Assembly (NCBI GenBank): GCA_035300645.1
Contig: DATGVF010000076.1
Coordinates: forward strand, 59 to 64,058
Direction: 5' to 3'
Origin: a bacterium
Lineage (GTDB): Bacteria > Sysuimicrobiota > Sysuimicrobiia > Sysuimicrobiales > Kaftiobacteriaceae
DNA length: 64,000 nt
The position numbers and the translations under genes are program-made. Under the pieces are notes generated by a model that made no database searches, had not been told where the DNA came from, and saw only the letters and a program-made list of their open reading frames with translations. Below, piece by piece: positions 1,991-34,484 of this stretch; the first letter of the stretch is position 1; each line of letters starts with the position of its first letter.

Positions 1991-3418
1991 GTGTTTGAAC
2001 AGACTCCCTTCGTGGGAAAACCTAACCTCCAACTTCGGAAGGCGGTAGCGGCCATCTTGACGGCTGCGGTGCGGGCTGTGGAGCCGGCGGCGGCCGTGCG
2101 ACGGGTGCTCGTGCGTCGCGGGCACCGCCTCCGCCTCGACACGCGGTGGTACGATCTGCGCCAGAGTCGGCGGATTCTTGTCGTGGGGATGGGAAAAGCC
2201 GCGGCTCCGATGGCGGCCGCGGTGGAACAGATCCTGGGGAGCCGCATTACCGACGGCTTGGTGGTCGTCAAGTACGGTCATACGGAACCCCTACGCCGGA
2301 TCCGCCTCGTGGAGGCCGGACATCCGCTGCCTGATGCCGCGGGCGAACGCGGCGCGGCGCAGATGTTGGAGCTGCTGCGCAGCGCATCCGAAGACGACTT
2401 AGTCGTGTGTTTGGTGTCAGGCGGGGGATCTGCGCTGTTGCCCGCCCCAGTGCCGGGGCTCAGGTTGCAGGATAAGATTGCCGTCACCGACCTCCTCTTG
2501 CGCAGCGGGGCAACGATCCAAGAGGTTAACATTGTCCGCAAGCACCTGTCCCAGGTGAAAGGCGGGCGCTTGGCACAGGCCGCCGCTCCGGCGCGATTGC
2601 TGGTTTTGGTCCTATCTGACGTGCTGGGCGATCCCCTCGACGCCATTGCGTCGGGACCGGCGTCGCCGGATCCCACGACGTTTGCAGATGCCTTCGCGGT
2701 TGTGCGACGATATCAGCTGGAGGATCGGCTGCCCGCCAGCGCCCTCGTCTACCTGCGCCGTGGCGCTTCAGGCCACGAAGCGGAGACCCCCAAGCCCGGA
2801 GATCCGCTGTTTGACCGCGTGCAGGTGGTCGTGGTGGGGAATAATATGCACGCGCTGACTGCGGCCGCCCAGCGCGCGAGAGGATTGGGATTCCGCGTCC
2901 TGGTGCTCACCCCGTTTCTGGAGGGGGAGGCGCGAGAGGTGGCGCGGGTGTTCGCGAGCATGGCACGGAGTGTCCGTGCCGTGCGGATCCCGCTGGGCTC
3001 GCCCGCGTGCGTGTTGGCCGGTGGAGAAACGACAGTGACGGTCCGGGGCGCCGGACGAGGGGGGCGGTGCCAGGAGTTTGCCCTCGCTGCGGCGGCCGCA
3101 ATCGCCGGACGGCCCGACACAGTCGTGGCCGGCTTCGGTACCGATGGCACGGATGGTCCGACTGACGCGGCGGGCGCTCTGGTCGACGGCGAGACGACGG
3201 CTCGGGCAACATCGTTGGGTGTGGATCTCGCTCGCGCGCTGGCTGACAATGACTCACACGCCGTCTTCCGCGACTTGGGGGATCTGCTCGTGACCGGTCC
3301 GACGAAGACAAACGTCAACGATATCTATCTCGCACTGGTGGGGCAGACGACCCCGAAGCGGCAGGAGACCCGCGTGAGTCGACGCATCAAACACGCCGCG
3401 CGGAAGACGCGCGGGTGA
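1991..3418 (+). CDS. Glycerate kinase (MOFRL family, glycerate 2-kinase / hydroxypyruvate reductase-like)
   Basis: N-terminal LRKAVAAILTAAVRAV, GHPLPD, SGGGSALL, KHLSxVKGGRLA and C-terminal GTDGTDGPTD motifs typical of MOFRL glycerate kinases. GTG start. Confidence 0.8.
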   Translation: MFEQTPFVGKPNLQLRKAVAAILTAAVRAVEPAAAVRRVLVRRGHRLRLDTRWYDLRQSRRILVVGMGKAAAPMAAAVEQILGSRITDGLVVVKYGHTEPLRRIRLVEAGHPLPDAAGERGAAQMLELLRSASEDDLVVCLVSGGGSALLPAPVPGLRLQDKIAVTDLLLRSGATIQEVNIVRKHLSQVKGGRLAQAAAPARLLVLVLSDVLGDPLDAIASGPASPDPTTFADAFAVVRRYQLEDRLPASALVYLRRGASGHEAETPKPGDPLFDRVQVVVVGNNMHALTAAAQRARGLGFRVLVLTPFLEGEAREVARVFASMARSVRAVRIPLGSPACVLAGGETTVTVRGAGRGGRCQEFALAAAAAIAGRPDTVVAGFGTDGTDGPTDAAGALVDGETTARATSLGVDLARALADNDSHAVFRDLGDLLVTGPTKTNVNDIYLALVGQTTPKRQETRVSRRIKHAARKTRG

Positions 3419-3438: not shown

Positions 3439-4896
3439 ATGAAGATCCTTTTCTGCGTGTCCGAGGCTGTGCCGCTCGCCAAAACCGGTGGGTTGGCCGA
3501 CGTGGGCGGGGCTCTGCCGGCGGCTCTGGCCGCCGTGGGCTGCGATGTGCGGGTCGTGCTGCCGCGGTATCGTAGCATCGGCGAAAGGGGCTGGCGCCCG
3601 GTCGGCACGGTCGACGTCTCCAGCGGCGGCGAGGCAGTCAGCGGGACGATTCTCGACGGCACGATGCCGGAGACCGCCGTGCCCATCTGGCTCGTGGATC
3701 AGCCGAAATACTTTGACCGAAGCGGACTCTACGGGGAGGCGGGGCGGGACTATCCCGATAACCTGGCGAGGTTTGGGTTCTTCTGCCGGGCCGTGCTGGC
3801 CTGGGTGGGACGGCAGTCGTGGAAACCCGACCTCATTCACTGCAACGACTGGCAGACCGCGCTGATCCCCCCACTGATCCGGGCCGGGCGCGCCGAGAGA
3901 ACGCCGACGCTGCTGACGATTCACAACCTGGCGTACCAGGGATTGTTTCCAGCTCAGGACTTCGCGCTCACCGATCTGCCCCCATCGTTTTTCACCATGG
4001 CGGGGTTGGAGTTTTGGGGGCAGGTGAATGTGCTGAAGGGAGGGTTGGTGTTCGCCGATACGTTGACCACCGTGAGCGAGACTTATGCCCGCGAGATTCA
4101 GACCGAAGAGTTCGGCGCTGGTTTGGACGGTGTGTTGCGCGACCGCGCCCGGGATCTGTGGGGCATCCTCAATGGCGTCGACTACCGCGTGTGGGACCCG
4201 TCCCATGATCCGCTGATCCCTGCCCAGTACTCGGCGGAGGATCTGACGGGTAAGCGAATTTGTAAGGAACACCTCCAGAGGGAGTTCAGTCTGTACGAGC
4301 GACCGGATATCCCGATTGTCGGTATGGTGACGCGTCTGGTCGACCAGAAGGGCCTCGACCTGGTGGAGGCCGCGTTGGATGAGCTGTTTGCTCTGGGGGT
4401 GCAGCTGGTGGTCTTGGGGGCGGGAGATGCCCGCTACGAGCAGGTTTTCGGCGACCTTCCGCGCCGGTACCCCAAGCGGGCAGGGGTCCGGATCGGTTTT
4501 GACAATGCTCTGGCGCACCGCATCGAGGCCGGAACCGACATCTTTCTCATGCCGTCACGCTACGAGCCCTCCGGACTGAACCAGCTCTATAGCCTCCGCT
4601 ACGGCACGGTGCCGGTTGTGCGCCACACCGGGGGGCTGGCCGACTCAATTGTTGATACCACGCCAGATACGCTCGCCGCAGGCACCGCGAACGGATTCGT
4701 CTTCGTCGCCTATGAGGCGCAGGCGATGCTGCAAGCCCTGCGCCGGGCCCTGGATACGTTCCGGACTCCACACACCTGGCGCCGGGTCCAGAAGACAGGC
4801 ATGGCAGCCGACTTCTCCTGGACTGCGTCTGCCCGCAAGTACCATGCGCTTTACGACCGGACGCTCGCCCAATCCGTCCGGCCGGGTAAAGGATAA
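3439..4896 (+). CDS. glgA: Glycogen (starch) synthase, ADP-glucose type (GT5)
   Basis: MKILFCVSEAVPLAKTGGLADV (KTGGL motif), ~485 aa. The ORF is open from 3415, but the MKILF start at 3439 matches the GlgA consensus. Confidence 0.9.
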   Translation: MKILFCVSEAVPLAKTGGLADVGGALPAALAAVGCDVRVVLPRYRSIGERGWRPVGTVDVSSGGEAVSGTILDGTMPETAVPIWLVDQPKYFDRSGLYGEAGRDYPDNLARFGFFCRAVLAWVGRQSWKPDLIHCNDWQTALIPPLIRAGRAERTPTLLTIHNLAYQGLFPAQDFALTDLPPSFFTMAGLEFWGQVNVLKGGLVFADTLTTVSETYAREIQTEEFGAGLDGVLRDRARDLWGILNGVDYRVWDPSHDPLIPAQYSAEDLTGKRICKEHLQREFSLYERPDIPIVGMVTRLVDQKGLDLVEAALDELFALGVQLVVLGAGDARYEQVFGDLPRRYPKRAGVRIGFDNALAHRIEAGTDIFLMPSRYEPSGLNQLYSLRYGTVPVVRHTGGLADSIVDTTPDTLAAGTANGFVFVAYEAQAMLQALRRALDTFRTPHTWRRVQKTGMAADFSWTASARKYHALYDRTLAQSVRPGKG

Positions 4897-4939
4897 GGAG
4901 GGAATCCACGAGTGCGCTATTTCTCCTGGGGGTGTCTCT

Positions 4940-5998
4940 GTGCCTGAATTACGCAAAGACCCGATCTCTCGGCGCTGGGTCATTATCGCCACCGACCGCG
5001 CTGCCCGTCCCACGGACTTCAAGCACGAAGTCGTGGAGGCCGGCGACATTGACCGCTGCCCATTCTGCGAGGGCAAAGAAGCGCAGACGCCGCCGGAGAT
5101 TTTTGCGATCCGGGCGCCCGGGACCGCGCCCAACACGCCCGGGTGGACGGTACGCGTTGTCTCGAACAAGTTTCCTGCCCTGCGCATCGAGGGCAGTACG
5201 GATCGGACAAAGGTGGGGCTCTTTTCCCGGATGGACGGCGTGGGTGCGCACGAAGTGATCATTGAGACGCCAGACCACACCCGGCACCTGGGTCTGCAGC
5301 CGGTGGAGCACGTTACGGATGTCGTTCGGGCGTATCTGCAGCGCTACCGCGATTTGCGGGGAGACAAGCGGTTCGCCTACGGCCTGTTGTTCCGAAATCA
5401 CGGACGCACCGCGGGTGCATCCCTCTCGCATCCCCACTCACAGCTGATCGCGCTGCCGGTTGTCCCTCAGCGGGTGGCCATCGAGCTGGACGCCGCAGAG
5501 CATTACCTCGGCCTCCAAGGGACCTGCATCTTCTGTACGATGCTGGAGGATGAGCGCAAAGCGGGAGTGCGCATCGTCGTGGAGAACGACGCGTTTGTGG
5601 CGCTCGAACCGTATGCCGCGCGGTTCCCGTTTGAAACGTGGATTTTACCGAAAGTCCACGAAGCGGACTTTGGTGCGCTACGCTCGGACCAGGAGCTTGC
5701 GTTTGCCGGGATCCTCCGCGAAACTCTTCACCGCCTACATGTCAGCTTGGATAACCCGCCCTACAACTTCATCATCCACTCGCTGCCGTACCACAGTGAG
5801 GCGAAACCCGCGTACCACTGGCATGTCGAGGTCATGCCCCGCCTCACTCAGATAGCAGGGTTTGAGTGGGGCACAGGCTTCTACATCAACCCCGTCGTCC
5901 CAGAGGAAGCCGCCCGATATCTGCGGGAGACCGCACCGGTCGGGGTGTCCGTGGGTCCAGGGGTAGGCGTAAAGACGCACGGGGAAGTGGGAGATTAG
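4940..5998 (+). CDS. GalT-like HIT-family hexose-1-phosphate nucleotidyltransferase (galactose-1-P uridylyltransferase / ADP-glucose phosphorylase family)
   Basis: CPFCEG zinc motif and HPHSQL active-site His motif; ELRKDPISRRWVIIA N-terminus. Start is uncertain (GTG 4940; ORF open from 4616, overlapping glgA). Confidence 0.8.
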   Translation: MPELRKDPISRRWVIIATDRAARPTDFKHEVVEAGDIDRCPFCEGKEAQTPPEIFAIRAPGTAPNTPGWTVRVVSNKFPALRIEGSTDRTKVGLFSRMDGVGAHEVIIETPDHTRHLGLQPVEHVTDVVRAYLQRYRDLRGDKRFAYGLLFRNHGRTAGASLSHPHSQLIALPVVPQRVAIELDAAEHYLGLQGTCIFCTMLEDERKAGVRIVVENDAFVALEPYAARFPFETWILPKVHEADFGALRSDQELAFAGILRETLHRLHVSLDNPPYNFIIHSLPYHSEAKPAYHWHVEVMPRLTQIAGFEWGTGFYINPVVPEEAARYLRETAPVGVSVGPGVGVKTHGEVGD

Positions 5999-6147: not shown

Positions 6148-7029
6148 ATGGACGTCCTCGTTGCCCAACTCCTGAATTCCCTCCTTTATGCCGCCGTGTT
6201 GTTCTTGATCGCCGGCGGGCTCAGCATGATCTATGGCGTCATGCGAATCGTCAATCTCGCGCACGGCACGCTCTATGCCCTCGGCGCGTATGTCATGGCG
6301 TGGGGGCTGTTGCGGCTCGCCGGGGAGTCGGGGTCGGAGCCGTTCTATCTCATCGCGTTCTTGCCGGTGGCCGCTGTGGCTGTTGCCGCGACCGGGGCTG
6401 TGGTGGAGCCGCTGCTCCTCCGTCCCCTGTACGCTCGGGCGGAAGAGTACCAGTTGCTGCTCACCTTCGGTTTACTGCTGATGCTCGAAGACGTGATGCG
6501 CTACATCTGGGGGCCGACACCTCTCACCGCGAGTTCGTTGTGGGCGTCATTTGGCACCCTGCACTTGTTGGGCGCAACCTATCCCGCCTACAACGTCGTG
6601 GTCATCATCTTGGGGTTGCTGGCGGCATTGATGCTGTGGGCGTTGATCTTCAAAACGCGCTTTGGCGTGATGCTGCGGGCGACCTCGCAGAACCGCCGCG
6701 TGGCCGCCGCGCTCGGTATCAACGTGAGTAGTGTGTACGTCCAGGCCTTTGCGCTCGGCTGCCTGATGGCCGGACTGGCAGGCGCCGTGGTGGTTCCCAT
6801 CCAGGGCGCGGTTCTGGGGATGGGCGTCGATGCCCTCGTGCTGGCCTTTGTGGTCGTGGTGATCGGGGGGTTGGGGAGTTTGGAGGGAGCGCTGGTTGGC
6901 GCGTTGATCGTCGGCGTGGTCCGCACGCTCGCGATCCAGTACTTCCCCGAGTTGGAGCTGGCGGTCCTCTACCTGATCGCCGCCGGTGTGTTGATCACGC
7001 GCCCCGCGGGTCTGTTGGGGCGGGCATGA
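6148..7029 (+). CDS. livH: HAAT-family (branched-chain amino acid / urea type) ABC transporter permease, LivH/UrtB-like
   Basis: 293 aa, polytopic, LivH-like N-terminus (LLNSLLYAAVLFLIAGGLSMIYGVMRIVNLAHG). Confidence 0.8.
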   Translation: MDVLVAQLLNSLLYAAVLFLIAGGLSMIYGVMRIVNLAHGTLYALGAYVMAWGLLRLAGESGSEPFYLIAFLPVAAVAVAATGAVVEPLLLRPLYARAEEYQLLLTFGLLLMLEDVMRYIWGPTPLTASSLWASFGTLHLLGATYPAYNVVVIILGLLAALMLWALIFKTRFGVMLRATSQNRRVAAALGINVSSVYVQAFALGCLMAGLAGAVVVPIQGAVLGMGVDALVLAFVVVVIGGLGSLEGALVGALIVGVVRTLAIQYFPELELAVLYLIAAGVLITRPAGLLGRA

Positions 7030-8078
7030 CCGTCAAGCAAGCGCCAGAGGCCACGATCGCGCTCGGCGCGGCCCCCGCCGGACGCCGCGCGGGGCCGGTC
7101 CCGTGGTATCTCGCGGTCCTGGCGGTCGTCGCCTTCGTCCTTCCGTTCCTCGAAAACGTCCCAGGGCTCGGCTGGCTGGCGTCTCCTTTCCAGCGGATTC
7201 AACTCACCTACGGTCTTGTCTTTGGCATCGCGGCGTTGGGGTTCAATCTGCTCCTCGGCTACACGGGGTTGCTGTCCTTCGGCCATGCGGCGTTCTTCGG
7301 CGGTGCGGCGTATGCCACGGGTTTGGTGGTGAAATACCTGCACGCGTCGTCGATCGAATCCTTCCTCCTTGCGGGCGTCGTGTTCAGCGTGGTGGTGGCC
7401 GTCGCATTCGGAGCGGTCTGCGTGCGGTACACGAAGATCTTTTTCTCGATCCTGACGATGGCGCTCTCGCAGGTGCTGTGGGCCCTGGCCCTCAAGTTCT
7501 TCTGGATCACCAATGGGTCGGACGGTCTCCGGATCCCGACCCCGACATTGTTGGGGGGCTTGATCCCCACCCCCGATGATAAGGTGCGGTTTCTATCGTT
7601 CACCTACTACTATTACGTCTTGGTCGTCTTCTGCGTCTGCGTGGCGGTGATGTGGCTGATTACCGCGTCCCCGTTCGGGAAAGCGCTGCAGGCCATTCGT
7701 GACAACGAGGTCCGCGCCCAGTTCATCGGCCTCGACGTGCCGCGGTACCGCGGGTTGGCATTTGTGGTCTCCGGGGCGTTTACCGGATTGGCGGGCGCCT
7801 TGTTTGCCCCCCTGAACGGGTTAACCACCCCGGATATTTTGCACTGGACCTTTTCAGGGAAGATCGTGTTTATGACCGTGCTGGGAGGATTCAAGACGTT
7901 CAGCGGGCCCATCCTGGGCGGGGTCGCCTACAACTACCTGGAAACGTACGTGATCAAGACCACCGAGTATTGGCAGATCCTCTTGGGAGCCATTCTCGTC
8001 GCGTTGGTGCTGCTGATGCCCCAGGGTATTATCGGGACGGTCGGCTGGCTGGTGGACTCTCGCCGGAGGCGCCGCTAG
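7026..8078 (+). CDS. livM: HAAT-family ABC transporter permease, LivM/UrtC-like
   Basis: 350 aa, polytopic; 4-nt overlap with the upstream permease. Confidence 0.8.
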   Translation: MTVKQAPEATIALGAAPAGRRAGPVPWYLAVLAVVAFVLPFLENVPGLGWLASPFQRIQLTYGLVFGIAALGFNLLLGYTGLLSFGHAAFFGGAAYATGLVVKYLHASSIESFLLAGVVFSVVVAVAFGAVCVRYTKIFFSILTMALSQVLWALALKFFWITNGSDGLRIPTPTLLGGLIPTPDDKVRFLSFTYYYYVLVVFCVCVAVMWLITASPFGKALQAIRDNEVRAQFIGLDVPRYRGLAFVVSGAFTGLAGALFAPLNGLTTPDILHWTFSGKIVFMTVLGGFKTFSGPILGGVAYNYLETYVIKTTEYWQILLGAILVALVLLMPQGIIGTVGWLVDSRRRRR

Positions 8079-8079
8079 C

Positions 8080-8826
8080 ATGCCCTTTCTCTTCGCGAAA
8101 GGGTTGCGGAAGTCGTTCGGGGAGACCCACGCCGTGGACGGGGTGGACTTTCGCGTCGAGAAAGAGGAGATCGTCTCGCTGGTGGGGTCAAACGGCGCCG
8201 GCAAGACGACGCTGCTCAACCTGCTCAGCGGGCTGTTGATGCCCGATGCGGGCCAGATCACTTTCGGCGACGCTGACATTACCGCTCTCTCCGTGGGGGA
8301 CCGTATCCGGGCGGGAATCGCGCGGAGTTTCCAGCTGGTCAACCTGTTCGATCAGCTCAGCGTGCTCGATAACATCCGCCTGACGATCTTTTCGCGCGAG
8401 GGCACCACCCGCCACCCCCTGCGCTTAGCCGAACGCGACACACGGACCAAGAGTGAGGCCATGGAGATCCTGCGAGCGTTTGGCCTGGAAAGCAAGTCGG
8501 AGGGTCCCGCCGCCGGATTGGCGCAGGGAGAGCGCAAGCTGCTGGATGTCGCGGTCGCATACGCCCTGCGTCCGAAGGTGATCCTGCTGGACGAACCGAC
8601 GAGTGGGGTGGGCACGCGCGAGAAGGGGACCATCATGGACGTGATCGCTCAAGTCGTGCGGGAGCGGTCCTTGGCTGCAGTGATTGTCGAACACGACATG
8701 GATATCGTGTTCAAATACTCGGCACGCATTGTGATGATGCACCAGGGATCGGTGCTCGCCGACGGAACACCGGAGCAGATTCGCGCCGATGCGCGGGTGG
8801 CGACCGCGCTACTAGGGAAGGCGTGA
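8080..8826 (+). CDS. livG: ABC transporter ATP-binding protein, LivG/UrtD-like
   Basis: Walker A GSNGAGKTT, 248 aa. Confidence 0.85.
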   Translation: MPFLFAKGLRKSFGETHAVDGVDFRVEKEEIVSLVGSNGAGKTTLLNLLSGLLMPDAGQITFGDADITALSVGDRIRAGIARSFQLVNLFDQLSVLDNIRLTIFSREGTTRHPLRLAERDTRTKSEAMEILRAFGLESKSEGPAAGLAQGERKLLDVAVAYALRPKVILLDEPTSGVGTREKGTIMDVIAQVVRERSLAAVIVEHDMDIVFKYSARIVMMHQGSVLADGTPEQIRADARVATALLGKA

Positions 8827-9557
8827 TGGACGAGGCGGCGGTGCTTCAGGTCAGTCACTTGGTCACCGATCGTGGTCGCGCGCACATTCTCCGGGATGTG
8901 TCTCTCGAGGTGCGCGCCGATGAGGTCGTCTGCTTGGTGGGGAGGAACGGGGCCGGCAAGACGACGACGATGGATAGCCTGATGGGATTGCTTCCGGTGC
9001 GGGGTGGCGCCATCCGGCTGCACGGACAGGACATTACCCGGCTGCCGGCCCACGCCCGTGCTCGGCGGGGGATCGGCTATGCACCCGAGGACGCCGGTGT
9101 CTTCCCGGATTTGACCGTCGACGAGAACCTCCAGATCGCCCAATGGCTCGGGACGGGGGGCCGTCCGGGGAATGGAGAGGGCACGGATAGCGGGACGGCA
9201 AAGGTGTTCGAACTCTTTCCAGAACTCCGTGGGCTGCGTTCTCGGCGGGCCCTGAACCTGAGCGGCGGAGAGAAGAAGATGGTGGCCATTGCGCGGGCGA
9301 TGCTGCTGCGTCCGTCGGTGATGTTGCTGGACGAGGCCTTCGAGGGGCTGGCGCCCGCGGTGGTGAAGCGTTTCGCCGAGGCGGTGACCCGCATCAAAGC
9401 GATGGGTATCGCGCTGTTCATTGCGGAGTCCAATATCATGACAGCGTCGCGGATCGCTGAACGCCTCTATGTCATGGACAGGGGAGAAATTCTCTTTGAG
9501 GGGACTCCTCAGGAGGCGTTTGCCAATGCGGAGGTCGTGCGGACCATCCGCGGATAA
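8823..9557 (+). CDS. livF: ABC transporter ATP-binding protein, LivF/UrtE-like
   Basis: Walker A GRNGAGKTT, LSGGEKKM signature, 244 aa; 4-nt overlap with livG. Confidence 0.85.
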   Translation: MMDEAAVLQVSHLVTDRGRAHILRDVSLEVRADEVVCLVGRNGAGKTTTMDSLMGLLPVRGGAIRLHGQDITRLPAHARARRGIGYAPEDAGVFPDLTVDENLQIAQWLGTGGRPGNGEGTDSGTAKVFELFPELRGLRSRRALNLSGGEKKMVAIARAMLLRPSVMLLDEAFEGLAPAVVKRFAEAVTRIKAMGIALFIAESNIMTASRIAERLYVMDRGEILFEGTPQEAFANAEVVRTIRG

Positions 9558-9566
9558 GGCCTACTG

Positions 9567-10289
9567 ATGCATAGCGCACACACGATCAACCAACGCTGGC
9601 GTACCCTGGGAGCCGACGGGCGCACGGTGGTGCGAGGTATCCTGGGCGCGATCCGACAGCGCAGCGGCGTGTTCGTGCTCGTCGTGGCCGCGATCGTCGC
9701 GCTGAATCTCATCCTGCCCCCCTTGGTCCTGTCCGTCGTGCGCAAGCCCTACGATCATTTCTCCTTCAACCCATGGTTGCACAACGTCCCCTCGTGGCTC
9801 CGGTCCGGGGAGGCGACGGTGGGGCGAAAGGTGGACTTCCTCTGGAACGCGGCGGTGCTGTGGTTCATCGCCTCCAGCGAGTATGACGAGGCGGAGTGGG
9901 GGTTTACTGTCACCGTGCGAGACGTCGCGCGATGGGTCCTCATGGGGACACTCTTCGGGGCGTACTTCAGCGTGTGGCTGCAGCGGCGCAGTCAACTGAA
10001 GCACGCGGGGCTGGCGGCAGGGCGGCGGGGCGGACGCGGCGGGGTGGTGGGGAGTGTGTTGAGCACGCTGGGAGTCACCACCATGCCGTGCAGCGTGGCC
10101 GGGTGTGGGGCCCCCGTGTTGCCGGTCGTAGGTCTGGCACTGACGGGGCTGTCTAGCGGAACGATTGCGTTGATGTCCAACGCGTCGCGGGTTCTGGTGT
10201 GGATTGTGATCGCCGGCGTCACCGCCTCCATCATCGTCTTGGCGAAGCAGGTGAGCGAGGGGAGTCTGAGCCCCGCTGCGCGCCTCTGA
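9567..10289 (+). CDS. Hypothetical polytopic membrane protein with a CxxxxC (CSVAGCGAP) motif in a TM region
   Basis: 240 aa, about 5-6 hydrophobic segments. Sandwiched between the two ABC transporter gene sets on the same strand. Confidence 0.5.
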   Translation: MHSAHTINQRWRTLGADGRTVVRGILGAIRQRSGVFVLVVAAIVALNLILPPLVLSVVRKPYDHFSFNPWLHNVPSWLRSGEATVGRKVDFLWNAAVLWFIASSEYDEAEWGFTVTVRDVARWVLMGTLFGAYFSVWLQRRSQLKHAGLAAGRRGGRGGVVGSVLSTLGVTTMPCSVAGCGAPVLPVVGLALTGLSSGTIALMSNASRVLVWIVIAGVTASIIVLAKQVSEGSLSPAARL

Positions 10290-10309
10290 AAGCTGGGCGC
10301 AACCGACCG

Positions 10310-11215
10310 ATGCGTCGTAGTCCACACCCTGCCGGCCGATCGCATGCGGCGCTGGCCGCGCTCTCCGTGGCCGTCGGCGTGGTTGCGTATGGACTTCTGT
10401 CGACCGGCTCCCGCTACGTCGATCTCGGCCAGTTCCCGGAGCCCGTACGCCACCTGCTGAGGGCCTCAGTCCTGCCCCCGCCCCAGGATCTCGTCGACAC
10501 CGTCATTCAGCTCGCGCAGGGGCGCACCGTCCCGATCGGTGACCCTCGTCACGTGAGTTCTCACCTGGAGACGCTGGCTCTGGCACACGTGACCTTGCAG
10601 GGGTCTCTTCTAGTGAGCACGCTGCGTGTGCTTATCGGGTTGAGCCTGGGCGTGCCCGCGGGCATCGCACTGGGGTTGGCGCTGGGATGGAATCAGAGGC
10701 TCGATGCGTATGGGCATCCTGTCTACATCCTTTTCCGCTCCATTCCCCCTCTGGCGCTGATCAGCTACGCCATGTTATGGCTGGGGCATACAGAGACCCA
10801 CGTGCTGATCCCTGTTGTGTATGCGGTCTGCACTGCGATGGTGATTCCCACCTACCACGGGATCCGTGACGTCGCGGGCGTTTATGTCTTGGCGGCGCGC
10901 ACGCTGGGGGCGCCTCGGGGTCTGTTCTTTTCGCGGGTCATCCTCCCGTCCGTCGGACCATCCATCATGTCCGGTCTCCGGTACGCGCTCGTCATTGCGT
11001 GGATGACGACCGTAGGTGCGGAGATGTTGATGGCTCGGACCGGAATGGGCGTCTTGCTTGTGGGGGGCGGGATCTGGTCATCTCGGTCTGAGATCGGCGT
11101 GGATCCCGCGGTAGTTATCGTGGGGATCCTGAGTCTGTCCGCAGCGGCATATGCGATGGATGCGGTCATCCGGCTCGCCTCTCGCCTCCCCGCGGCCGGA
11201 TGGGCAGACCGATGA
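10310..11215 (+). CDS. NitT/TauT-family (sulfonate/nitrate/taurine type) ABC transporter permease
   Basis: EAA-loop region AARTLGAPRGLFFSRVILPSVGPSIMSG; internal ATG at 10310 chosen because the ORF start at 10199 overlaps the upstream gene. Confidence 0.75.
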   Translation: MRRSPHPAGRSHAALAALSVAVGVVAYGLLSTGSRYVDLGQFPEPVRHLLRASVLPPPQDLVDTVIQLAQGRTVPIGDPRHVSSHLETLALAHVTLQGSLLVSTLRVLIGLSLGVPAGIALGLALGWNQRLDAYGHPVYILFRSIPPLALISYAMLWLGHTETHVLIPVVYAVCTAMVIPTYHGIRDVAGVYVLAARTLGAPRGLFFSRVILPSVGPSIMSGLRYALVIAWMTTVGAEMLMARTGMGVLLVGGGIWSSRSEIGVDPAVVIVGILSLSAAAYAMDAVIRLASRLPAAGWADR

Positions 11216-12012
11216 ATTTCAAGCGGGCGGTCCTTGCGTTCGCCGTGTTGGCGATCCTCTACGGCGTTGCCGCACAGGTTGGCAGTCCGTATCTCCCCCG
11301 CAGGGTCTGGTGGATCGCCCACCATGTGGATAATGTGGAGCTCCTCCCCACATACGCGTCACTGGCGGACGAGACGGTTTTCCTTGTCCGATCGGGCATC
11401 TTGCCTCAGGGTGTGGTCGTGAGCACCGGTCGCGTCCTGGCAGGTCTGTTGGTCGGCGTGGTCGTCGGTGTGGCCGTCGGCGTGTCCATGGCCCGGATGA
11501 CCCACGTGGACGACATCCTGAGTCCGTGGGTCGCTCTGGTGCGGTACACTCCGGCGCTCGCCTTGCTTCCTCTTTATGTGCTGTGGTTTGGTTTGGGAGA
11601 ACCCTCCAAGGTATTGTTGGTCGCGACCGCAGTCGGCCCTGTCATGCTGTTGGGCGCCTACCAGGGGGTCCGCGCAATCCCGCGCGTGCACCTGGATGCC
11701 GCCACACTGCTCGGCGCGCCGGGCAGCATGATTCTGAGACGGGTCGTCCTGCCGGGTGCGCTTCCCCATATCCTGTCGAGTTTCCGCATCGCCTTGGGTC
11801 TCGCTTGGGTGACCATCGTGGCCGCCGAACTGGTTGCGCCGACCATACCGAGCCTAGGGTATCTCCTCGCCGTGGCGGCGGCGTTTCCCCGAGTCCCGAC
11901 GATTGTCGTCGGGATCGTCACTATCGGCGGCCTCGTGCTGCTGTCCGATGCGATTACGCTCGGTGTTTACCGCGCGGCGACACAGTGGATGCCACGACGC
12001 GTTGAAGATTAA
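11212..12012 (+). CDS. NitT/TauT-family ABC transporter permease (second paralog)
   Basis: ATGA overlap with the upstream stop (start 11212). EAA-like region LLGAPGSMILRRVVLPGALPHI. Confidence 0.75.
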   Translation: MNFKRAVLAFAVLAILYGVAAQVGSPYLPRRVWWIAHHVDNVELLPTYASLADETVFLVRSGILPQGVVVSTGRVLAGLLVGVVVGVAVGVSMARMTHVDDILSPWVALVRYTPALALLPLYVLWFGLGEPSKVLLVATAVGPVMLLGAYQGVRAIPRVHLDAATLLGAPGSMILRRVVLPGALPHILSSFRIALGLAWVTIVAAELVAPTIPSLGYLLAVAAAFPRVPTIVVGIVTIGGLVLLSDAITLGVYRAATQWMPRRVED

Positions 12013-12802
12013 TCCCGCTCCCGCCGTCAAACTCGAAATTACCGACCTCGCCTATACCTATGCCGGTCGAACTTCGGTGCGGGCCCTAGACGGCGTCACC
12101 CTTGTCATCTCGGACAACGAATTCCTGGCGATCGTCGGACCAGTGGGGTGCGGAAAAACCACGCTGCTGCGCTGTGTGGCGGGTCTTCTGCGGCCCGCGC
12201 GAGGCACAATCACATGTGACGGCGCCCCCGTGGTCGGTCCGAGTCCCCAGCGCGGGTTCGTCTTTCAGGAAGAGGCCCTCTTCCCGTGGATGACGGTCGC
12301 GGACAACCTCGCTTTTGGCCTGCAAGCCCAGGGCGTGGAGGCGTCCCGGCAGCGGGCACTCGTCGACGAGATGATCGATCTGCTTGGGCTTCGCGGGTTC
12401 GAACGCGCCTACCCGAAAGACCTGTCCGGCGGGATGGTCAAGATGGTCGAAGTGGCCCGGGTGCTGATCGTTGACCCCGCCCTTCTCCTGCTCGATGAGC
12501 CATTCGGCCTGCTGGACGCGCAGACGCGTGTGAGGATGCAAGATGTCCTCATCGGGCTGTGGGAGAAGCGGACGAAGACGGTGATCCTGGTCACCCATGA
12601 CATTGAGGAGGCGGTGTACCTGGCGGACCGCGTCGTGGTCTTCTCCTCGCGACCAGGACGGGTGAAGGCCGAAGTGCGCGTGGATTTTCCACGCCCGCGG
12701 CGGCCGGCGATGCGGTATACCGCGGCGTTCTTAGAACTGAAAAAGCAGATTTGGGACAGACTCGATGCGGGGTCGGGGGAGATCCGGGACGGAGGCCGCT
12801 AG
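12002..12802 (+). CDS. NitT/TauT-family ABC transporter ATP-binding protein (SsuB/TauB-like)
   Basis: Walker A GPVGCGKTT, LSGGM signature. TTG at 12002 chosen as the start (ORF open from 11903). Confidence 0.8.
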   Translation: MKINPAPAVKLEITDLAYTYAGRTSVRALDGVTLVISDNEFLAIVGPVGCGKTTLLRCVAGLLRPARGTITCDGAPVVGPSPQRGFVFQEEALFPWMTVADNLAFGLQAQGVEASRQRALVDEMIDLLGLRGFERAYPKDLSGGMVKMVEVARVLIVDPALLLLDEPFGLLDAQTRVRMQDVLIGLWEKRTKTVILVTHDIEEAVYLADRVVVFSSRPGRVKAEVRVDFPRPRRPAMRYTAAFLELKKQIWDRLDAGSGEIRDGGR

Positions 12803-12816
12803 CGACCTCCGTCCCG
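12785..12816. terminator. 32-nt near-perfect palindrome/hairpin (11-bp GC stem) between convergent genes; putative bidirectional terminator
   Basis: CGGGACGGAGG-ccgctagcga-CCTCCGTCCCG. The TAG stop of the ATPase sits in the loop. No U-tract on either side. Confidence 0.4.
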
Positions 12817-12833
12817 ACATGTGAACGGTCTGA

Positions 12834-14204
12834 TTACCCTTTGACCTTCGGCCAGGTCTGGTCGATCCAGGTGTACGTGGACGTCGGCTCCCCCTTGGGC
12901 CATCCCGGGGGGGCCGTGATATTTCGGATCGGGATCGTGAACATCCGGCTGGGGTCCAGGACGAGGAACGGCAGGTTCTTGTCCCTCATCGAGAAGCCGG
13001 TCATCGCGTCCTTATACGCCTGGTGGTTGTCGGGTCGGATCTGGATGTACCCGGCGGGGGACTCCCAGGACAGGCCCTCCAGTTCGTGAATGATGGCGTC
13101 GTCCTCCGGCCACCCCCCCGTGAGTCGGTTCGCCCGCTTCATCGCGTTGTGGAGCATGTTGACGGCGGTGTAGGCGCCCTCCGCCTGGAAGTTCGGGTAT
13201 TCCTTCCAGCGATTGTAGTACTTGCGCACGAAGAGGGTGTTGAGGGGCCACCTATTGCCCGGCGGGAAATTCCAGTAGTAGTTGGAGTGCACGCCGGCAA
13301 TGACGCCTTCCGGGTGGTCGTTGCCGATCGCCTGCGGAGCGACCCCAAACGCCAACGTGCTGGCGAACTTCATCTTCTCGAACAGCCCGTAGCCCAACGC
13401 CTGCTTGTAGAAGGCGATGTAGTCGCCGCCCCAGACGGACGACATCAGCAAGTCGGGCTTGGCGGAAATCGTCTTCGTGATGTGCGCGATGAAATCGGCG
13501 GTGCCCAGCTTCGGCCACGCCTCAGAAACGACCTCGGTGCCCGGGAGCAACTTGCTGATGGCAATGCGGAAGTGGTCAAAGGCGTTGCGGCCGTAGGAGT
13601 AGTCCGGGTTGATGTACGCGATTTTCCGCACCTCCGGCCAGGTCGCAGCTGTCGCGATCGCGCAGGTGACGCCGTCCGCCGACTGGATGTTGGTGACGCG
13701 GAAGACGTACTTGGGATTCGGCACGGCTTTGTCAAAGAGGAAGTCGGTGCACCCGTCCACAAAGAGCGTGAGGACCTTCAAATCCTCGGCCACCGGGCCG
13801 ATCGCCGGCGTGTTGCTGCTCGACGTGATCCCCGTAAAGGCATCGATCTTCCCTTCGAGCTTCATCCGTTTGAACTCTTTTACGTTCGCGTCCGTGCCCG
13901 CATTTTCGTCGGCGGTGATGGTCTCAATCAACCGCTTGCCGAGCAACCCGCCCTCGGCGTTGATCTCCTCGGCGGCCAGCGTGTGCCCCTTGAGCATGGG
14001 CGCGCCGAGGACAGCCGCCGGGCCCGATTGGAAGGTCATGTGGCCGATTTTGTAAGCCGTAGTGGGGATCTTCCCCTGCGCGGGAGCCTGTGCCTCGGCA
14101 GGTGGCGGGAGCACCGTACTGGCGAGTCCGCCGATGGTGGCTGCGCCAACGGTCACGCCCAGTCCCTTGAGAAAATCTCGACGATTGACTTCACGGTCAG
14201 GCAT
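12834..14204 (-). CDS. PBP1-type (Leu/Ile/Val / urea / amide-binding family) ABC substrate-binding protein with a twin-arginine signal
   Basis: N-terminal NRRDFLKGLGVTVGAATIG Tat motif, 456 aa. Peripla_BP_6-like IGHMTFQSGPAAVLG...EINAEGGLLGKR. Confidence 0.8.
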   Translation of the reverse strand: MPDREVNRRDFLKGLGVTVGAATIGGLASTVLPPPAEAQAPAQGKIPTTAYKIGHMTFQSGPAAVLGAPMLKGHTLAAEEINAEGGLLGKRLIETITADENAGTDANVKEFKRMKLEGKIDAFTGITSSSNTPAIGPVAEDLKVLTLFVDGCTDFLFDKAVPNPKYVFRVTNIQSADGVTCAIATAATWPEVRKIAYINPDYSYGRNAFDHFRIAISKLLPGTEVVSEAWPKLGTADFIAHITKTISAKPDLLMSSVWGGDYIAFYKQALGYGLFEKMKFASTLAFGVAPQAIGNDHPEGVIAGVHSNYYWNFPPGNRWPLNTLFVRKYYNRWKEYPNFQAEGAYTAVNMLHNAMKRANRLTGGWPEDDAIIHELEGLSWESPAGYIQIRPDNHQAYKDAMTGFSMRDKNLPFLVLDPSRMFTIPIRNITAPPGWPKGEPTSTYTWIDQTWPKVKG

Positions 14205-14397
14205 CGTTTTGTCTCCTCCTTGCTAAAGAATCCGCGCCCAGCCTGAGTGTGTTCGGGCCTGCGCACATCCCGTCCGGCCGTTTGTGCCTCCCTTCCTCCT
14301 CTGGTCGCCCGGGATGAGAACTATCAGGCCGCTTCTGCACCTGGTGGAGTCATCCCTCCCCCCGAGGCTTGTCCCTGGTCCTGGCTCGCGGGTTCCG

Positions 14398-14403
14398 TAT
14401 AAT
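14398..14403 (+). promoter_or_regulatory. TATAAT -10 box 9 nt upstream of the glcD ATG (implies a leaderless or near-leaderless mRNA)
   Basis: Exact TATAAT at 14398-14403; ATG at 14413. Only a weak -35 (TGGTCC). Confidence 0.35.
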
Positions 14404-14412
14404 GGGGTCACG

Positions 14413-15846
14413 ATGATCCCCGCCGCCCTCATCGCCCACCTGCAGGAGATCGTCGGTCCTGCCCAAGTGTTAGTCCGCCCCGAAGACGTCGTCGTGTATG
14501 AGCAGGATGCCTTTCTCGTCGCACATAGCCTTCCTGATCTCGTCGTCCTGCCTGGGTCCACAGAGGAAGTCGCCGCCGTGGTGGGTGCAGCTGGCGAGGC
14601 TGGGGTGCCCATCGTCGCCCGGGGGGCCGGGACGGGCCTCAACGGCGGCTCGATTCCCATCCGCGGGGGGGTCATGGTCGTTCTGACACGGATGAATCAC
14701 ATCCTCGACCTCGATGCCCCCCACCGGCTGGCCGTCGTGGAGCCGGGTGTCGTCAACGTCGATCTCACCACTGCCGCTGCTCCCTATGGATTGTTTTACG
14801 CCCCCGACCCCGGCAGTCAGTCGGTATCGACCATCGGAGGCAACGTCGGCAACAATGCGGGAGGGCCCCACTGCCTGTCGTACGGCGTGACCAGCAATCA
14901 CGTGCTGGCCCTACAAGTCGTGCTGGCATCCGGGACGGTCGTCTGGGTCGGCAGCCACGCCGTCGATTCCCCCGGTTATGACTTGTGCGGTCTCCTTGTG
15001 GGATCCGAGGGCACTCTGGGCGTGGTCACGGCGGTCGTGGTCAGACTGTTGCGCAAGCCTGAGGCGGCGCGGACGCTCCTCGCGGTCTTCGAGTCAATCG
15101 ACGATGCGTCACAGACCGTGTCAGATGTGATTGGGGCGGGCATTGTGCCCACGGCAATGGAAATGATGGATGGTGTCGTGATGGCCGCGGTCGAGGCGTC
15201 CATCCACGCCGGCTACCCGGAAGATGCCGGGGCGGTGCTGCTGATCGAAGTGGAGGGGACGCAGGAGGCGCTGCCTCGCCAGATCGATCGGATCGGGGAA
15301 ATCTGCCGGCGGCATGAACTGCGAATGCTCCGCACGGCGGAGACCGAGCAGGAACGCCTCCTATTATGGAAGGGGCGCAAAGAGGGGGCCGGTGCGCTGG
15401 GTCGCCTGGCGCCCTCATATTATCTGCACGACGGCGTCGTGCCCCGCACCAAGCTGCCTGAGGTGATGCGTCGGGTCATGGCGATCGGCCAAGCGCATGA
15501 TTTGCGCATCGGCAACCTCTTCCACGCCGGCGACGGCAATTTGCATCCCATCATCCTGTTCAACCCCCGCGAACGTGGCATTATGCAACGCGTCGTGCAG
15601 GCAGGCGAGGAAATTCTCCACGCCTGCGTGGACGCGGGCGGCACGATTACAGGCGAACATGGCGTGGGGATCGAAAAACGAGAGTACATGCGCTGGTTGT
15701 TCACAGACGCCGATCTGCAGTCCATGCAGAACGTGAAGCACGTCTTCGACCCCGGCGGTATCATGAACCCGGGGAAGCTGCTCCCCGTGGGCGAACCAAC
15801 GGACCTCACCGTGAAGCGGGCGGTCGCGCCCGGGATGTGGACCTGA
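14413..15846 (+). CDS. glcD: Glycolate oxidase subunit GlcD-like FAD-linked oxidase
   Basis: FAD-binding PCMH domain (RGAGTGLNGG), ~477 aa. Start chosen at internal ATG 14413 (ORF open from 14284). Confidence 0.8.
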   Translation: MIPAALIAHLQEIVGPAQVLVRPEDVVVYEQDAFLVAHSLPDLVVLPGSTEEVAAVVGAAGEAGVPIVARGAGTGLNGGSIPIRGGVMVVLTRMNHILDLDAPHRLAVVEPGVVNVDLTTAAAPYGLFYAPDPGSQSVSTIGGNVGNNAGGPHCLSYGVTSNHVLALQVVLASGTVVWVGSHAVDSPGYDLCGLLVGSEGTLGVVTAVVVRLLRKPEAARTLLAVFESIDDASQTVSDVIGAGIVPTAMEMMDGVVMAAVEASIHAGYPEDAGAVLLIEVEGTQEALPRQIDRIGEICRRHELRMLRTAETEQERLLLWKGRKEGAGALGRLAPSYYLHDGVVPRTKLPEVMRRVMAIGQAHDLRIGNLFHAGDGNLHPIILFNPRERGIMQRVVQAGEEILHACVDAGGTITGEHGVGIEKREYMRWLFTDADLQSMQNVKHVFDPGGIMNPGKLLPVGEPTDLTVKRAVAPGMWT

Positions 15847-15885
15847 GGCTGTGTGCCAGATCGTAGTCGGACGAGGGCTTGGGTG

Positions 15886-17361
15886 ATGGCGAAACTCAGT
15901 CCATCGGAACAGAAGGCATCGCGTGTCACTCGAGACGCCTTGCTCCGGGAACTGCGAGCCGTCGTCGGCGACGCGTATGTCCTCGTGGAAAAAGAAGACA
16001 TCATCGTCTACGAGCAGGACGGCTCAATCCTCCAGGTGATGCCAGAGATCGTCGTCTTGCCCGCGAGTACGGAAGAGGTCGCCGGTGCGGTCCGGGCGGC
16101 GAAACGGGCAAACGTCCCAATCGTGCCGCGAGGGTCGGGGACTGGTTTGGCGGGGGGAGCAGTCCCCGCCGAGGGCGGGGTGATGATCTCGCTGGCGCGG
16201 ATGAACCACATCCGGGAGGTCGACTTGCCGAACCGGCTTGCGGTCGTGGAGCCCGGCGTCATCAACCAGGACGTCACGAAGGCGGTCTCTCCCGCGGGCT
16301 ACTTCTATGCTCCCGATCCCAGCAGCCAGGCGGCGTGCTCCATCGGCGGAAACGTCGCGAACAACTCCGGTGGCCCGCACACGCTCGCCTATGGCGTTAC
16401 GACTAATCACGTGCTCGGGCTGGAGGTCGTGCTTGATGATGGCCGAGTGGCCTCGCTGGGAGGACGCGTGTCGGATATCCCTGGCTACGACCTCTGCGGC
16501 GCCTTCGTCGGGTCTGAGGGGACCGTCGGCATAGCGACAGGAGTTGTGGTTCGTTTGATGCGGACCCGCGAGACAGTGCGGACGCTGCTGGCCATCTTCG
16601 ACCGCATGGAGGCGGCCACGCAGGCGGTAGTGGAAATCACGGGGGCGGGCATCGTCCCCGCCGCGTTAGAGATGATGGACCGCCTGACGATCGAAGCCGT
16701 GGAAACAGGCGCGCCAGTCGGGTATCCGCGCGACGCCGAAGCGGTGCTGCTCGTGGAGCTCGAGGGCGTACGCGAGGAGACTGCGCGAGCGGCGTCCATC
16801 GTGCAGACCATCTGTACCACCCGGGGGGCACGTGAGGTCCGGCTCGCCCAGGATGAGGCAGAACGGCAACGCCTGTGGAAAGGGCGCAAGGGCGCATTCG
16901 GCGCTCTGGGGGCTCTCGCGCCGAACTACTACGTGCAGGACGGCGTCGTGCCGCGCAGCCGACTGCCGGAGGTCATGGCGCAGATCGCTTCGATCAGCGC
17001 CCGGTACAACTTGCGCATCGCCAACGTCTTTCACGCCGGCGACGGCAACCTGCATCCGAACATCCTATTTGACATGCGTACGCCGGGTGATTTGGACCGG
17101 GTCATCGAGGCGGGTGCGGAGATCCTGCGTGCGTGCATCGCCGCGGGCGGCAGTATCACGGGTGAGCATGGCATCGGGCTGGAGAAAAAGGCGTACATCG
17201 GCCTCCTGTTTTCTCCCGCCGATTTGGACGCGATGGCGCGGGTCCGCCGCGTCTTCGATCCGGACGGCCGTTTCAATCCCGCGAAGATGTTTCCGACGCC
17301 TATTACGTGTGCCGAGATGCGGCGAGCGCCCGCGAAAATCCCGGCAGGACTGTGGATATGA
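15886..17361 (+). CDS. Second GlcD-like FAD-linked oxidase (paralog; could be D-lactate dehydrogenase-like)
   Basis: RGSGTGLAGG, ~490 aa; highly similar in architecture to the upstream gene. Confidence 0.75.
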   Translation: MAKLSPSEQKASRVTRDALLRELRAVVGDAYVLVEKEDIIVYEQDGSILQVMPEIVVLPASTEEVAGAVRAAKRANVPIVPRGSGTGLAGGAVPAEGGVMISLARMNHIREVDLPNRLAVVEPGVINQDVTKAVSPAGYFYAPDPSSQAACSIGGNVANNSGGPHTLAYGVTTNHVLGLEVVLDDGRVASLGGRVSDIPGYDLCGAFVGSEGTVGIATGVVVRLMRTRETVRTLLAIFDRMEAATQAVVEITGAGIVPAALEMMDRLTIEAVETGAPVGYPRDAEAVLLVELEGVREETARAASIVQTICTTRGAREVRLAQDEAERQRLWKGRKGAFGALGALAPNYYVQDGVVPRSRLPEVMAQIASISARYNLRIANVFHAGDGNLHPNILFDMRTPGDLDRVIEAGAEILRACIAAGGSITGEHGIGLEKKAYIGLLFSPADLDAMARVRRVFDPDGRFNPAKMFPTPITCAEMRRAPAKIPAGLWI

Positions 17362-17407
17362 GTGAGGAGGTCGGGAGGCGGCACCCTTCCGTGAGCGAGA
17401 TCAGACC

Positions 17408-20097: not shown

Positions 20098-20105
20098 CGT
20101 CGTCG

Positions 20106-22214: not shown

Positions 22215-22381
22215 GGCGGATAAGGGAACCCTAGCAGTCGGCGGTCTCTTCGATCTGGTGTCTCACGGCAGTCTGTACGGTCCCGCGTCCCTCACGTCCG
22301 CATGGGAGGAACTCACTGATTCGGTGGATTGGCGGGTCTCAATCCGGTCGGAGTACGCTCGCTTGGATCGTCCGTGTCGCC

Positions 22382-23653: not shown

Positions 23654-23732
23654 CCCGCCCGCGCAGGCGCGGACGGCTAAGGCGTCCCCATCCGGTGCCG
23701 GCGAATGATAGGGTCCGCCAAGAACTCAGCAG

Positions 23733-24497: not shown

Positions 24498-24659
24498 GCG
24501 ATCTCCGGCGTGGTTCTTCGGCGCGGCGCCAGCCCGAGTCCGATCCCGGTGACCCGGAGCACATTCTCCGTCCCGGCGCGGGCGGATTCTTGGGCAGTGG
24601 TGACGTGAGTGGACGCCTGTCGACACTAGATTATCCCGTCGCCCCGCAGGATGCCAGGG

Positions 24660-24681
24660 GGGATGGGTTCCAACCCATCCC
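24660..24681. promoter_or_regulatory. Perfect 9-bp inverted repeat GGGATGGGT-tcca-ACCCATCCC in a 325-bp divergent intergenic region
   Basis: Sits between the rhomboid-like gene (minus) and otsAB (plus). No U-tract, so a candidate operator rather than a terminator. Confidence 0.3.
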
Positions 24682-24822
24682 GTGAACGATCAGGAAAACT
24701 CTCAACCAGAGGGCGGGACCCCACTAGGCACGGGCCGTGCCAACCTCTCCGGGTACCCGTTGCGATATGCTTGATCACGTCCACGAGGCCCGGCGATCGC
24801 CTTCCGGCGCCAAGGGACTCCG

Positions 24823-27072: not shown

Positions 27073-27084
27073 ATGGCTAAGAGG

Positions 27085-28943: not shown

Positions 28944-28990
28944 CTCGCGGAGCTCCAGGCACTCGACAAACTCAAATGGACGCGCCGCGG

Positions 28991-31387: not shown

Positions 31388-31450
31388 CTCAGGCCGCCCC
31401 AGGGTGACAGCCCGACCAGCGCAGGGGGGCGTCGGCAGTCGGGGGCGTCC

Positions 31451-34368: not shown

Positions 34369-34484
34369 CTAAGGCTCCTTCATTTGGGGGAATCCGTGCT
34401 GACCCTTTCGCTACCCATCATGGGATTACCCCTACAAATGAGGTTGTCAGAAAGGGAGCGGGCCGCCGGAGCTGGCGCAGCGGA

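Follow-up and report, generated by a model that had tools for sequence, protein, structure and literature searches.

The stretch of DNA analyzed here, 64 kb of contig DATGVF010000076.1 from a bacterium of the phylum Sysuimicrobiota (at its full length, the window), carries three genes head to tail on its + strand: a DUF4147/MOFRL gene, the glycogen synthase gene glgA, and a gene of the GalT (galactose-1-phosphate uridylyltransferase) family. Their coordinates, with those of the other features discussed, are collected in Table 1. We propose that the GalT-like gene encodes an ADP-glucose:phosphate adenylyltransferase, a bacterial enzyme of the branch typified by the Arabidopsis protein At5g18200, and that this gene is most likely co-transcribed with glgA; we assign this reading a probability of roughly 0.6.

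The glgA product passes the NCBIfam model NF001899 with 572 bits (cut-off 459) and the "ADP-glucose type" model TIGR02095 with 568 bits (cut-off 328). Both alignments begin at residue 1 of the product that starts at ATG 3439 (MKILFCVSE), and the alignment to Escherichia coli GlgA (44% identity) also runs from 3439. The GTG start of the GalT-like gene (VPELRKDP...) corresponds to the N terminus common to all homologues (PELRKD). The original prediction for this DNA had placed the gene about 45 nt past the glgA stop, and the measured distance is 43 nt. A terminator scan revealed no terminator-like hairpin in this spacer. The spacer has a G-rich stretch (Table 1), and the spacers of close relatives also contain GAGG/GGAGG-like boxes; the promoter and terminator scan was otherwise uninformative. 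With a common strand, a 43-nt spacer free of terminator-like sites and an adjacency that is kept in relatives (see below), glgA and the GalT-like gene resemble an operon. The translational coupling that had also been claimed does not hold in the window, where stop and start are well separated; a TGATG overlap of the glgA stop and the start of the GalT-like gene was seen only in two relatives (L086 and L087, 60% identity to the window protein). The open frame said to run back through the end of glgA does exist, extending 120 codons upstream to TGA 4577–4579, and is without significance, because open stretches of at least 125 codons cover 40% of positions (six frames) in this GC-rich (64% G+C) window. 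Since homologues start at PELRKD and long open stretches are common, we rejected it as evidence. The G+C content is 62 to 67% across the whole window.

Branch of the GalT family and catalytic residues

Pfam detects both GalT half-domains in the GalT-like protein, PF01087 and PF02744, with weak scores (52 and 37 bits), along with DUF4921/DUF4931_N and a weak Ap4A_phos_N match over the HxHxQ region. In a phmmer search of the PDB, the top match was At5g18200 (1Z84/2H39; 252 bits, E 6e-74), followed by Pyrobaculum aerophilum GalT (PaGalT, 125 bits), E. coli GalT (82 bits), and human GALT (55 bits). The window protein is 39% identical to At5g18200; the figure is 34% for PaGalT and 27% for E. coli GalT. 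We built hidden Markov models (HMMs) from 113 homologues of the plant ADP-glucose phosphorylase (ADPGP) and from 117 homologues of the archaeal Pa-type GalT. The window protein scored 306 bits with the former and 221 bits with the latter, and the plant model beat the archaeal model by 46 to 111 bits in 87/87 bacterial homologues. In a neighbor-joining tree (35 sequences, 302 columns, 200 bootstraps, rooted on E. coli GalT as outgroup), plants and bacteria formed one clade, as sisters, in 200/200 bootstraps, and the bacteria by themselves were monophyletic in 194/200. Outside the joint clade fell the archaeal GalTs, among them a relative with 99% identity to the crystallized PaGalT. An AlphaFold2 model from a 28-sequence alignment (predicted local distance difference test score, pLDDT, 68.5; predicted template-modeling score 0.75) was used for fold ranking only. 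With this model, the six best Foldseek matches in the PDB were At5g18200 structures of the class I two-HIT-domain fold, including the ADP-glucose complex 2H39 (1ZWJ/1Z84/2H39; E ~1e-25, target template-modeling score 0.81–0.84). The two proteins are also of the same length class of ~350 aa. Judged by sequence, tree, and predicted fold, the protein belongs to the At5g18200 branch of the class I GalT/HIT family. PMC6329318 and the 2026 BlGalT2 preprint, both citing McCoy et al. 2006, describe At5g18200 itself as a phosphorylase of ADP-glucose that lacks GalT activity.

The motifs CPFCEG and HPHSQL, both quoted in the original prediction, lie at 5057–5074 and 5429–5446. C40, C43, H113, and H164 align with C63/C66/H133/H184 of At5g18200 and with C52/C55/H115/H164 of E. 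coli GalT. All 87 bacterial homologues have C40, and 84/87 have C43; in 3/87, Asp takes the place of this second Cys in the predicted Zn site, as in the CPFD of the Fervidobacterium-labeled locus L022 (5817–6806). According to the 2026 BlGalT2 preprint, the first HIT His binds Zn in all class I structures, At5g18200 included. H164-P-H166-S-Q168 aligns with H184-S-H186-S-Q188 of At5g18200 and with H164/H166/Q168 of E. coli GalT, and its three key residues are conserved in 87/87, 86/87, and 85/87 bacterial homologues, respectively. We take His186 of At5g18200 to be the nucleophile that forms the adenylyl intermediate, and this numbering agrees with the alignment to the window protein; the chain in the ADP-glucose complex 2H39 has Gly at position 186. 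A second CxxC...H...H constellation, C196/C199/H240/H293, is common to the window protein, plants, and PaGalT. H104, N276, F308, and N317 are found in plant ADPGP too, but other residues occupy these positions in E. coli GalT and PaGalT; the motifs PPYN and GFExGTGxYINP show the same distribution.

Tandem HIT paralogues, 42 to 48% identical to the window protein, occur at three related loci (L033, 996–3023; L064, 8001–10045; L066, 1793–3927). In L033 and L064, the second copy shows HxHxH in place of HxHxQ, and one L066 copy reads HSRSQ, its nucleophile His replaced by Arg. Such paralogues might act as regulatory or inactive heterodimer subunits.

Class I GalTs (E. coli, 1HXP/1GUP; PaGalT, 6K5Z; human GALT) have in common with the window protein the two-HIT-domain fold, the HxHxQ motif, and the Zn site, and a ping-pong mechanism through a nucleotidyl-histidine is expected to be common to all. 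They differ from it in their C-terminal hexose-binding segment, which we take in E. coli GalT to comprise K311, F312, V314, Y316, E317, and Q323. The HMMER alignment of the window protein to E. coli GalT ends at residue 306/307, and in a MAFFT alignment only G307 and E309 match this segment. These comparisons bear on the idea that the gene encodes an ordinary Leloir GalT (UDP-glucose:galactose-1-phosphate uridylyltransferase) that stands beside glgA by chance. The protein narrowly passes the galT equivalog model TIGR00209 (113.4 vs 102.1 bits, an 11-bit margin), its homologues go by the names galT and UDPglucose--hexose-1-phosphate uridylyltransferase in databases, HxHxQ and the Zn site are as in GalT, and the archaeal GalT clade is just moderately more distant than the plant one. 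However, NF008724, the model of the Enterobacterial-type GalT, is failed by 300 bits (142 vs 448), the hexose-binding segment is replaced, and the tree groups the protein outside the GalT clades with a plant enzyme that PMC6329318 reports as lacking GalT activity. The neighboring genes bear on this idea as well.

Gene neighborhoods in relatives

The gene is widespread, occurring in thousands of protein clusters. When one genome was searched for each GTDB species, at least 597 species proved to have a relative, of which the best 80 loci were kept; a further eight metagenome loci, obtained through exact-protein matches, bring the related loci to 88 (numbered L001–L083 and L086–L090). No galK or galM is present in any of them, and tblastn found no match for E. 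coli GalK or GalM in the window. GalE-like genes are confined, among the window and the 88 loci, to L030 (6 kb away) and to the window itself, where the gene in question is a generic SDR epimerase, at 187 bits below the 262 required by the GalE model. The absence of gal genes nearby, noted in the original prediction, is thus borne out. As a positive control, two archaeal Pa-type GalT relatives do adjoin galK: in Vulcanisaeta galT and galK overlap, and in Pyrococcus there is a galK-GH57-MFS-GH1-galT cluster.

In contrast to this lack of Leloir partners, glgA is the immediate same-strand neighbor in 17 of the 80 species loci, under ~10 phylum-level labels and at gaps of about 18 to 266 nt, and the pair is present in 8/8 metagenome loci. 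Both gene orders occur. glgA comes first in the CSP1-3/"Armatimonadota" group, which is closest to the window, and in L007, L022, and L038; the glgA-first loci outside the closest group are from "Firmicutes"-labeled, Fervidobacterium-labeled, and Verrucomicrobiota metagenome-assembled genomes (MAGs). The HIT gene comes first in Zixibacteria, Ignavibacteria, Nitrospirota, Dormibacterota, Planctomycetota, and Syntrophorhabdaceae. Hot-spring MAGs labeled Armatimonadota or Candidatus Fervidifonticultor (Candidatus Sysuimicrobiota/CSP1-3 in the NCBI taxonomy) are the closest relatives, and the window probably comes from an uncultured bacterium of the same group. An adjacency kept in two orders and ~10 lineages is far above chance, for which we estimate ~2 in ~3000 genes per genome, and with the galK-linked archaeal controls it makes an ordinary Leloir GalT very improbable. 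The neighborhoods are the strongest line of evidence. They also set the bacterial gene apart from At5g18200, since an operon with glgA is a context impossible for a plant gene.

The MOFRL gene adjoins glgA in L001–L007 and L090. Because it has drifted two to three genes off in L086–L089, glgA and the HIT gene are the conserved core of the locus, and the MOFRL pairing is lineage synteny.

Other contexts vary by lineage. In Scalindua (L081), the HIT gene stands amid genes for GlgB, GH57, MalQ, GlgP-like, and GlgC proteins, the GlgP-like gene being within 8 kb. In Zixibacteria and Ignavibacteria, a sugar nucleotidyltransferase with PF13562 (NTP_transf_4) and hexapeptide repeats, the HIT gene, and glgA form, in that order, a conserved trio, and this nucleotidyltransferase might substitute for GlgC. 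A large multi-pass membrane protein without a Pfam match is often encoded after the trio. A DksA-family gene lies upstream of the HIT gene, and a gene for a triple-GAF histidine kinase (with a response regulator) downstream, in Thermodesulfobacteriota, Scalindua, and some Nitrospirota; this context hints at starvation or stringent-type regulation. In two close relatives (L001, 7170–10007; L002, 7036–9760), the HIT gene is directly followed by lutABC-like genes and then by glcD/glcD-like/glcF. The window, unlike these, is missing the lutABC-like genes, and an 8-kb block lies between its HIT gene and its glcD genes. This block holds two sets of ATP-binding cassette (ABC) transporter genes, which encode permeases and ATPases of urt/liv type, a further permease, a further ATPase, and a Peripla_BP_6 binding protein.

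The MOFRL gene and the α-glucan island of the window

The product of the DUF4147/MOFRL gene falls under the cut-off of the NCBIfam glycerate 2-kinase models (233 vs 550 bits). The 4-nt overlap of this gene with glgA that had been predicted requires a glgA start at GTG 3415; ATG 3439, the conserved start, lies 20 nt past the MOFRL stop. In close relatives (L001–L003), the MOFRL stop does overlap the conserved glgA start (M/V-R-V-L-F-C; GTGA/ATGA). The lineage thus joins the two genes tightly, as the predicted coupling would have it, and the case of the window itself is ambiguous. It is unusual for a glycerate-kinase-like gene to be joined so tightly to a glycogen synthase gene.

A glgC gene was said to lie in the same region and does so, 25 kb from glgA; its product passes both NCBIfam models tried (Table 1), is 39% identical to E. 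coli GlgC, and indicates that the organism makes ADP-glucose. The gene is part of an α-glucan/trehalose island in which the α-glucan-processing enzymes are all of GH57 type; no GlgP/MalP, GlgX, or GH13 GlgB homologue was found in the 64-kb window. A link of the HIT gene to TreT (trehalose + ADP → ADP-glucose) was considered and rejected, as no TreT/OtsA homologue neighbors the HIT gene in any of 83 loci. The membrane H+-translocating pyrophosphatase gene of the window is of relevance only in that a cycle of GlgC and ADP-glucose phosphorylase would yield pyrophosphate (PPi). A 427-aa open reading frame without a Pfam or NCBIfam match (200–1483, − strand) is maybe a spurious antisense frame in GC-rich DNA or an uncharacterized gene. 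An Rfam search of the whole 64 kb gave no family at its gathering score.

Table 1. Features of the window, and of related loci where a locus number is given
Feature	Position	Strand	Remarks
DUF4147/MOFRL gene (glycerate-2-kinase-like)	1991–3418	+	Pfam PF13660 and PF05161; directly 5′ of glgA
glgA, GT5 glycogen synthase, ADP-glucose type	3439–4896	+	Stop TAA 4894–4896
glgA/GalT-like spacer	4897–4939	+	43 nt; GGGGG 4928–4932, 7 nt before GTG start
GalT-like HIT nucleotidyltransferase gene	4940–5998	+	GTG start, 352 aa; At5g18200-type, predicted ADP-glucose phosphorylase
C40-P-F-C43 codons	5057–5068	+	Two of four predicted structural Zn ligands (others H113, H164)
H164-P-H166-S-Q168 codons (HxHxQ)	5429–5443	+	H166, predicted nucleotidyl-accepting His
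Block with two ABC-transporter gene sets	6148–14204		Between HIT gene and glcD genes
glcD genes	14284–18745		
α-Glucan/trehalose island	19995–35402		Pfam and NCBIfam scans; separate from glgA locus
GH57 4-α-glucanotransferase	19995–22214		
Sugar-binding protein	22382–23653		
OtsA-OtsB fusion	24823–27072		
TreT-like trehalose synthase	27085–28347	−	390 bits, cut-off 775
GH57/DUF3536	28991–31387	−	
glgC (glucose-1-phosphate adenylyltransferase)	31451–32659	−	NF002023 527 bits (cut-off 458); TIGR02091 426 (cut-off 424.9)
GH57 branching enzyme	32656–34368	−	
SDR epimerase (GalE-like)	34485–35402	−	
Membrane H+-translocating pyrophosphatase	60446–62788		PF03030, 805 bits
MOFRL stop/glgA start overlap	L001 4489–4492; L002 4489–4492; L003 4235–4238		GTGA/ATGA
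Zixibacteria/Ignavibacteria trio	L011 356–4222; L012 3665–7521; L019 6576–10517; L043 97–3961; L083 6756–10522		
DksA/HIT/GAF-kinase loci	L057, L061, L071 7572–11400; L081 8001–11300; L051, L054		

Predicted reaction and role in glycogen metabolism

In the proposed mechanism, His166 would attack the α-phosphate of ADP-glucose, glucose 1-phosphate (G1P) would leave, and an adenylyl-His166 intermediate would form in ping-pong fashion. Gln168 would stabilize this intermediate and, together with the Zn-bound His164, position the nucleophile, while C40, C43, H113, and H164 are predicted to hold a structural Zn beside it. Phosphate would then take up the AMP group to give ADP, for a net reaction of ADP-glucose + phosphate ↔ ADP + G1P. 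Phosphate is likewise the acceptor of a His-bound nucleotidyl group in the Ap4A phosphorylases Apa1/2, in Rv2613c, and in the plant GDP-L-galactose phosphorylases VTC2/5; these enzymes are much more distant, match over partial domains, act on other substrates, and have no link to glycogen genes. Remote Foldseek matches of the window protein model are 3ANO and 3WO5.

Co-expressed with glycogen synthase, such an enzyme would control the ADP-glucose pool and tie it to phosphate, ADP, G1P, and the energy status of the cell. At high phosphate, or when synthesis stalls, ADP-glucose would be returned to G1P and ADP with the phosphoanhydride bond kept. A functional analog is the E. coli ADP-sugar pyrophosphatase AspP/NudF, a Nudix-fold enzyme that hydrolyzes ADP-glucose to AMP and G1P. 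It too removes ADP-glucose and opposes glycogen synthesis, but its fold is unrelated and the phosphoanhydride bond is lost, whereas phosphorolysis keeps ADP.

The original prediction had favored an ADP-glucose phosphorylase over a galactose enzyme and had named phylogenetic placement, active-site residues, and the neighbors in relatives as the places to look. In all three, the comparisons above point to ADP-glucose: At5g18200 ranks first in the PDB and shares a fully supported clade with the bacteria, the protein keeps the nucleophile His and the Gln, the Cys2His2 ligands, and the four residues shared with plant ADPGP, and glgA stands where galK and galM are absent. ADP-glucose phosphorylase activity is thus well supported as a prediction from sequence and context; the substrate ADP-glucose, the acceptor phosphate, co-transcription with glgA, and the physiological direction are inferred.

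Several points weigh against this assignment. Identity to At5g18200 is only 39%, compared with 34% to a bona fide archaeal GalT, and at such distances specificity often shifts. E182/H280/H295/E297, which correspond to the structural Fe site described for the E. coli and Pyrobaculum GalTs in the 2026 BlGalT2 preprint, are kept in bacteria and lost in plants, which have R/F/Q in place of E182/H295/E297; by these residues, the bacterial proteins are not simply "plant-like." Where E. coli GalT has Asp78, which binds uridine, bacteria have Lys (K77), plants Leu, and PaGalT Arg, and no adenine-versus-uracil signature was found among the positions that match the uridine contacts of E. coli GalT. The narrow pass of TIGR00209 belongs here too, as does the moderate confidence of the AlphaFold2 model (pLDDT 68.5), in which the active-site loops score below 50. 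In 52 of the 80 species loci, those of Acidobacteriota, there is no glycogen neighbor and the HIT gene is found in a cysS-aminotransferase-UPF0102-gene order. Finally, an enzyme made together with GlgA and GlgC would, if unregulated, drive a futile ATP + phosphate → ADP + PPi cycle. Control of the enzyme or a cooperative role with GlgA is therefore likely.

The residue differences among these points feed the idea that the fold serves other substrates, either UDP-glucose or another NDP-hexose with phosphate, or ADP-glucose and a sugar 1-phosphate in a transfer that yields another ADP-sugar. A change of specificity is allowed by 39% identity, and the nucleotide-contact positions differ between bacteria and plants (K77 vs Leu, TPPE vs CAPE). 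At5g18200 reportedly accepts several phosphates. The sugar nucleotidyltransferase next to the HIT gene in Zixibacteria and Ignavibacteria is of unassigned specificity, and some GlgA enzymes use UDP-glucose (P. aeruginosa paper). However, GlgA and GlgC of the window both score above the cut-off of ADP-glucose-type models, and the sugar-side motif GFExGTGxYINP, with H104/N276/F308/N317, is common to the ADP-glucose enzyme. We consider other substrates unlikely, and ADP-glucose phosphorolysis remains the preferred reading.

The likely need for control or cooperation leads to a version in which the chemistry is the same and the enzyme works with GlgA, either feeding it ADP-glucose made from ADP and G1P without ATP, or phosphorolyzing the ADP-glucose that GlgA releases in reverse. 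Run in this second way, the pair would be an ADP-catalyzed two-enzyme glycogen phosphorylase (glycogen + ADP ↔ ADP-glucose; ADP-glucose + phosphate → ADP + G1P), for which we see a low probability. Partners in an operon normally share a pathway, and this pair is kept in ~10 lineages and overlaps in L086; no GlgP/MalP homologue lies in the 64 kb despite the large α-glucan island. The equilibrium is said to favor ADP and G1P 5- to 40-fold, so at cellular phosphate the enzyme would pull ADP-glucose down, and by this reasoning only the degradative net direction would be favorable at cellular phosphate/G1P ratios. The synthetic direction would, by the same token, be thermodynamically unfavorable in vivo. 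The absence of GlgP is established for 64 kb of the genome, and Scalindua does have a GlgP-like gene near its homologue. We also know of no documented case of a GT5 glycogen synthase running in reverse at useful rates. Cooperation with GlgA in either form is doubtful on balance, and so, to the same degree, is a scheme in which GlgA and the HIT enzyme constitute an ADP-catalytic glycogen-mobilizing module or a phosphate-sensing valve that makes synthesis reversible at the level of ADP-glucose.

No report of a bacterial ADP-glucose phosphorylase, or of a glgA–galT link, was found in the literature searched, of which coverage is incomplete, so that an earlier mention is possible; nor did that literature yield biochemistry for any bacterial member of the clade. 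One mention of a bacterial "ADP-glucose phosphorylase" proved to be a slip for GlgC and was set aside, and the description of the phylum Sysuimicrobiota mentions neither glycogen, galactose, nor trehalose. As far as we found, then, this kind of enzyme has one known representative, a plant protein, and the conserved link of its bacterial counterpart to glycogen synthase is unreported.

If the gene encodes an ADP-glucose phosphorylase, metabolic reconstructions of the many species that carry it wrongly credit a Leloir step and overlook a reaction that consumes ADP-glucose. What the plant enzyme does has, to our knowledge, been unclear since 2006, and the glgA-linked bacterial orthologues make it tractable to ask which purpose ADP-glucose phosphorolysis serves, be it pool control, energy-conserving salvage, or a bypass of phosphorylase. 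The less likely GlgA/HIT module or valve, if true, would add a reaction step to the GlgC-GlgA-GlgB/GlgP-GlgX scheme in at least 10 bacterial phyla, and the module would amount to a phosphorylase-independent, energy-conserving mobilization of glycogen. Together, these data suggest that the predicted ADP-glucose-splitting enzyme encoded behind glgA points to an unrecognized step in bacterial glycogen metabolism.

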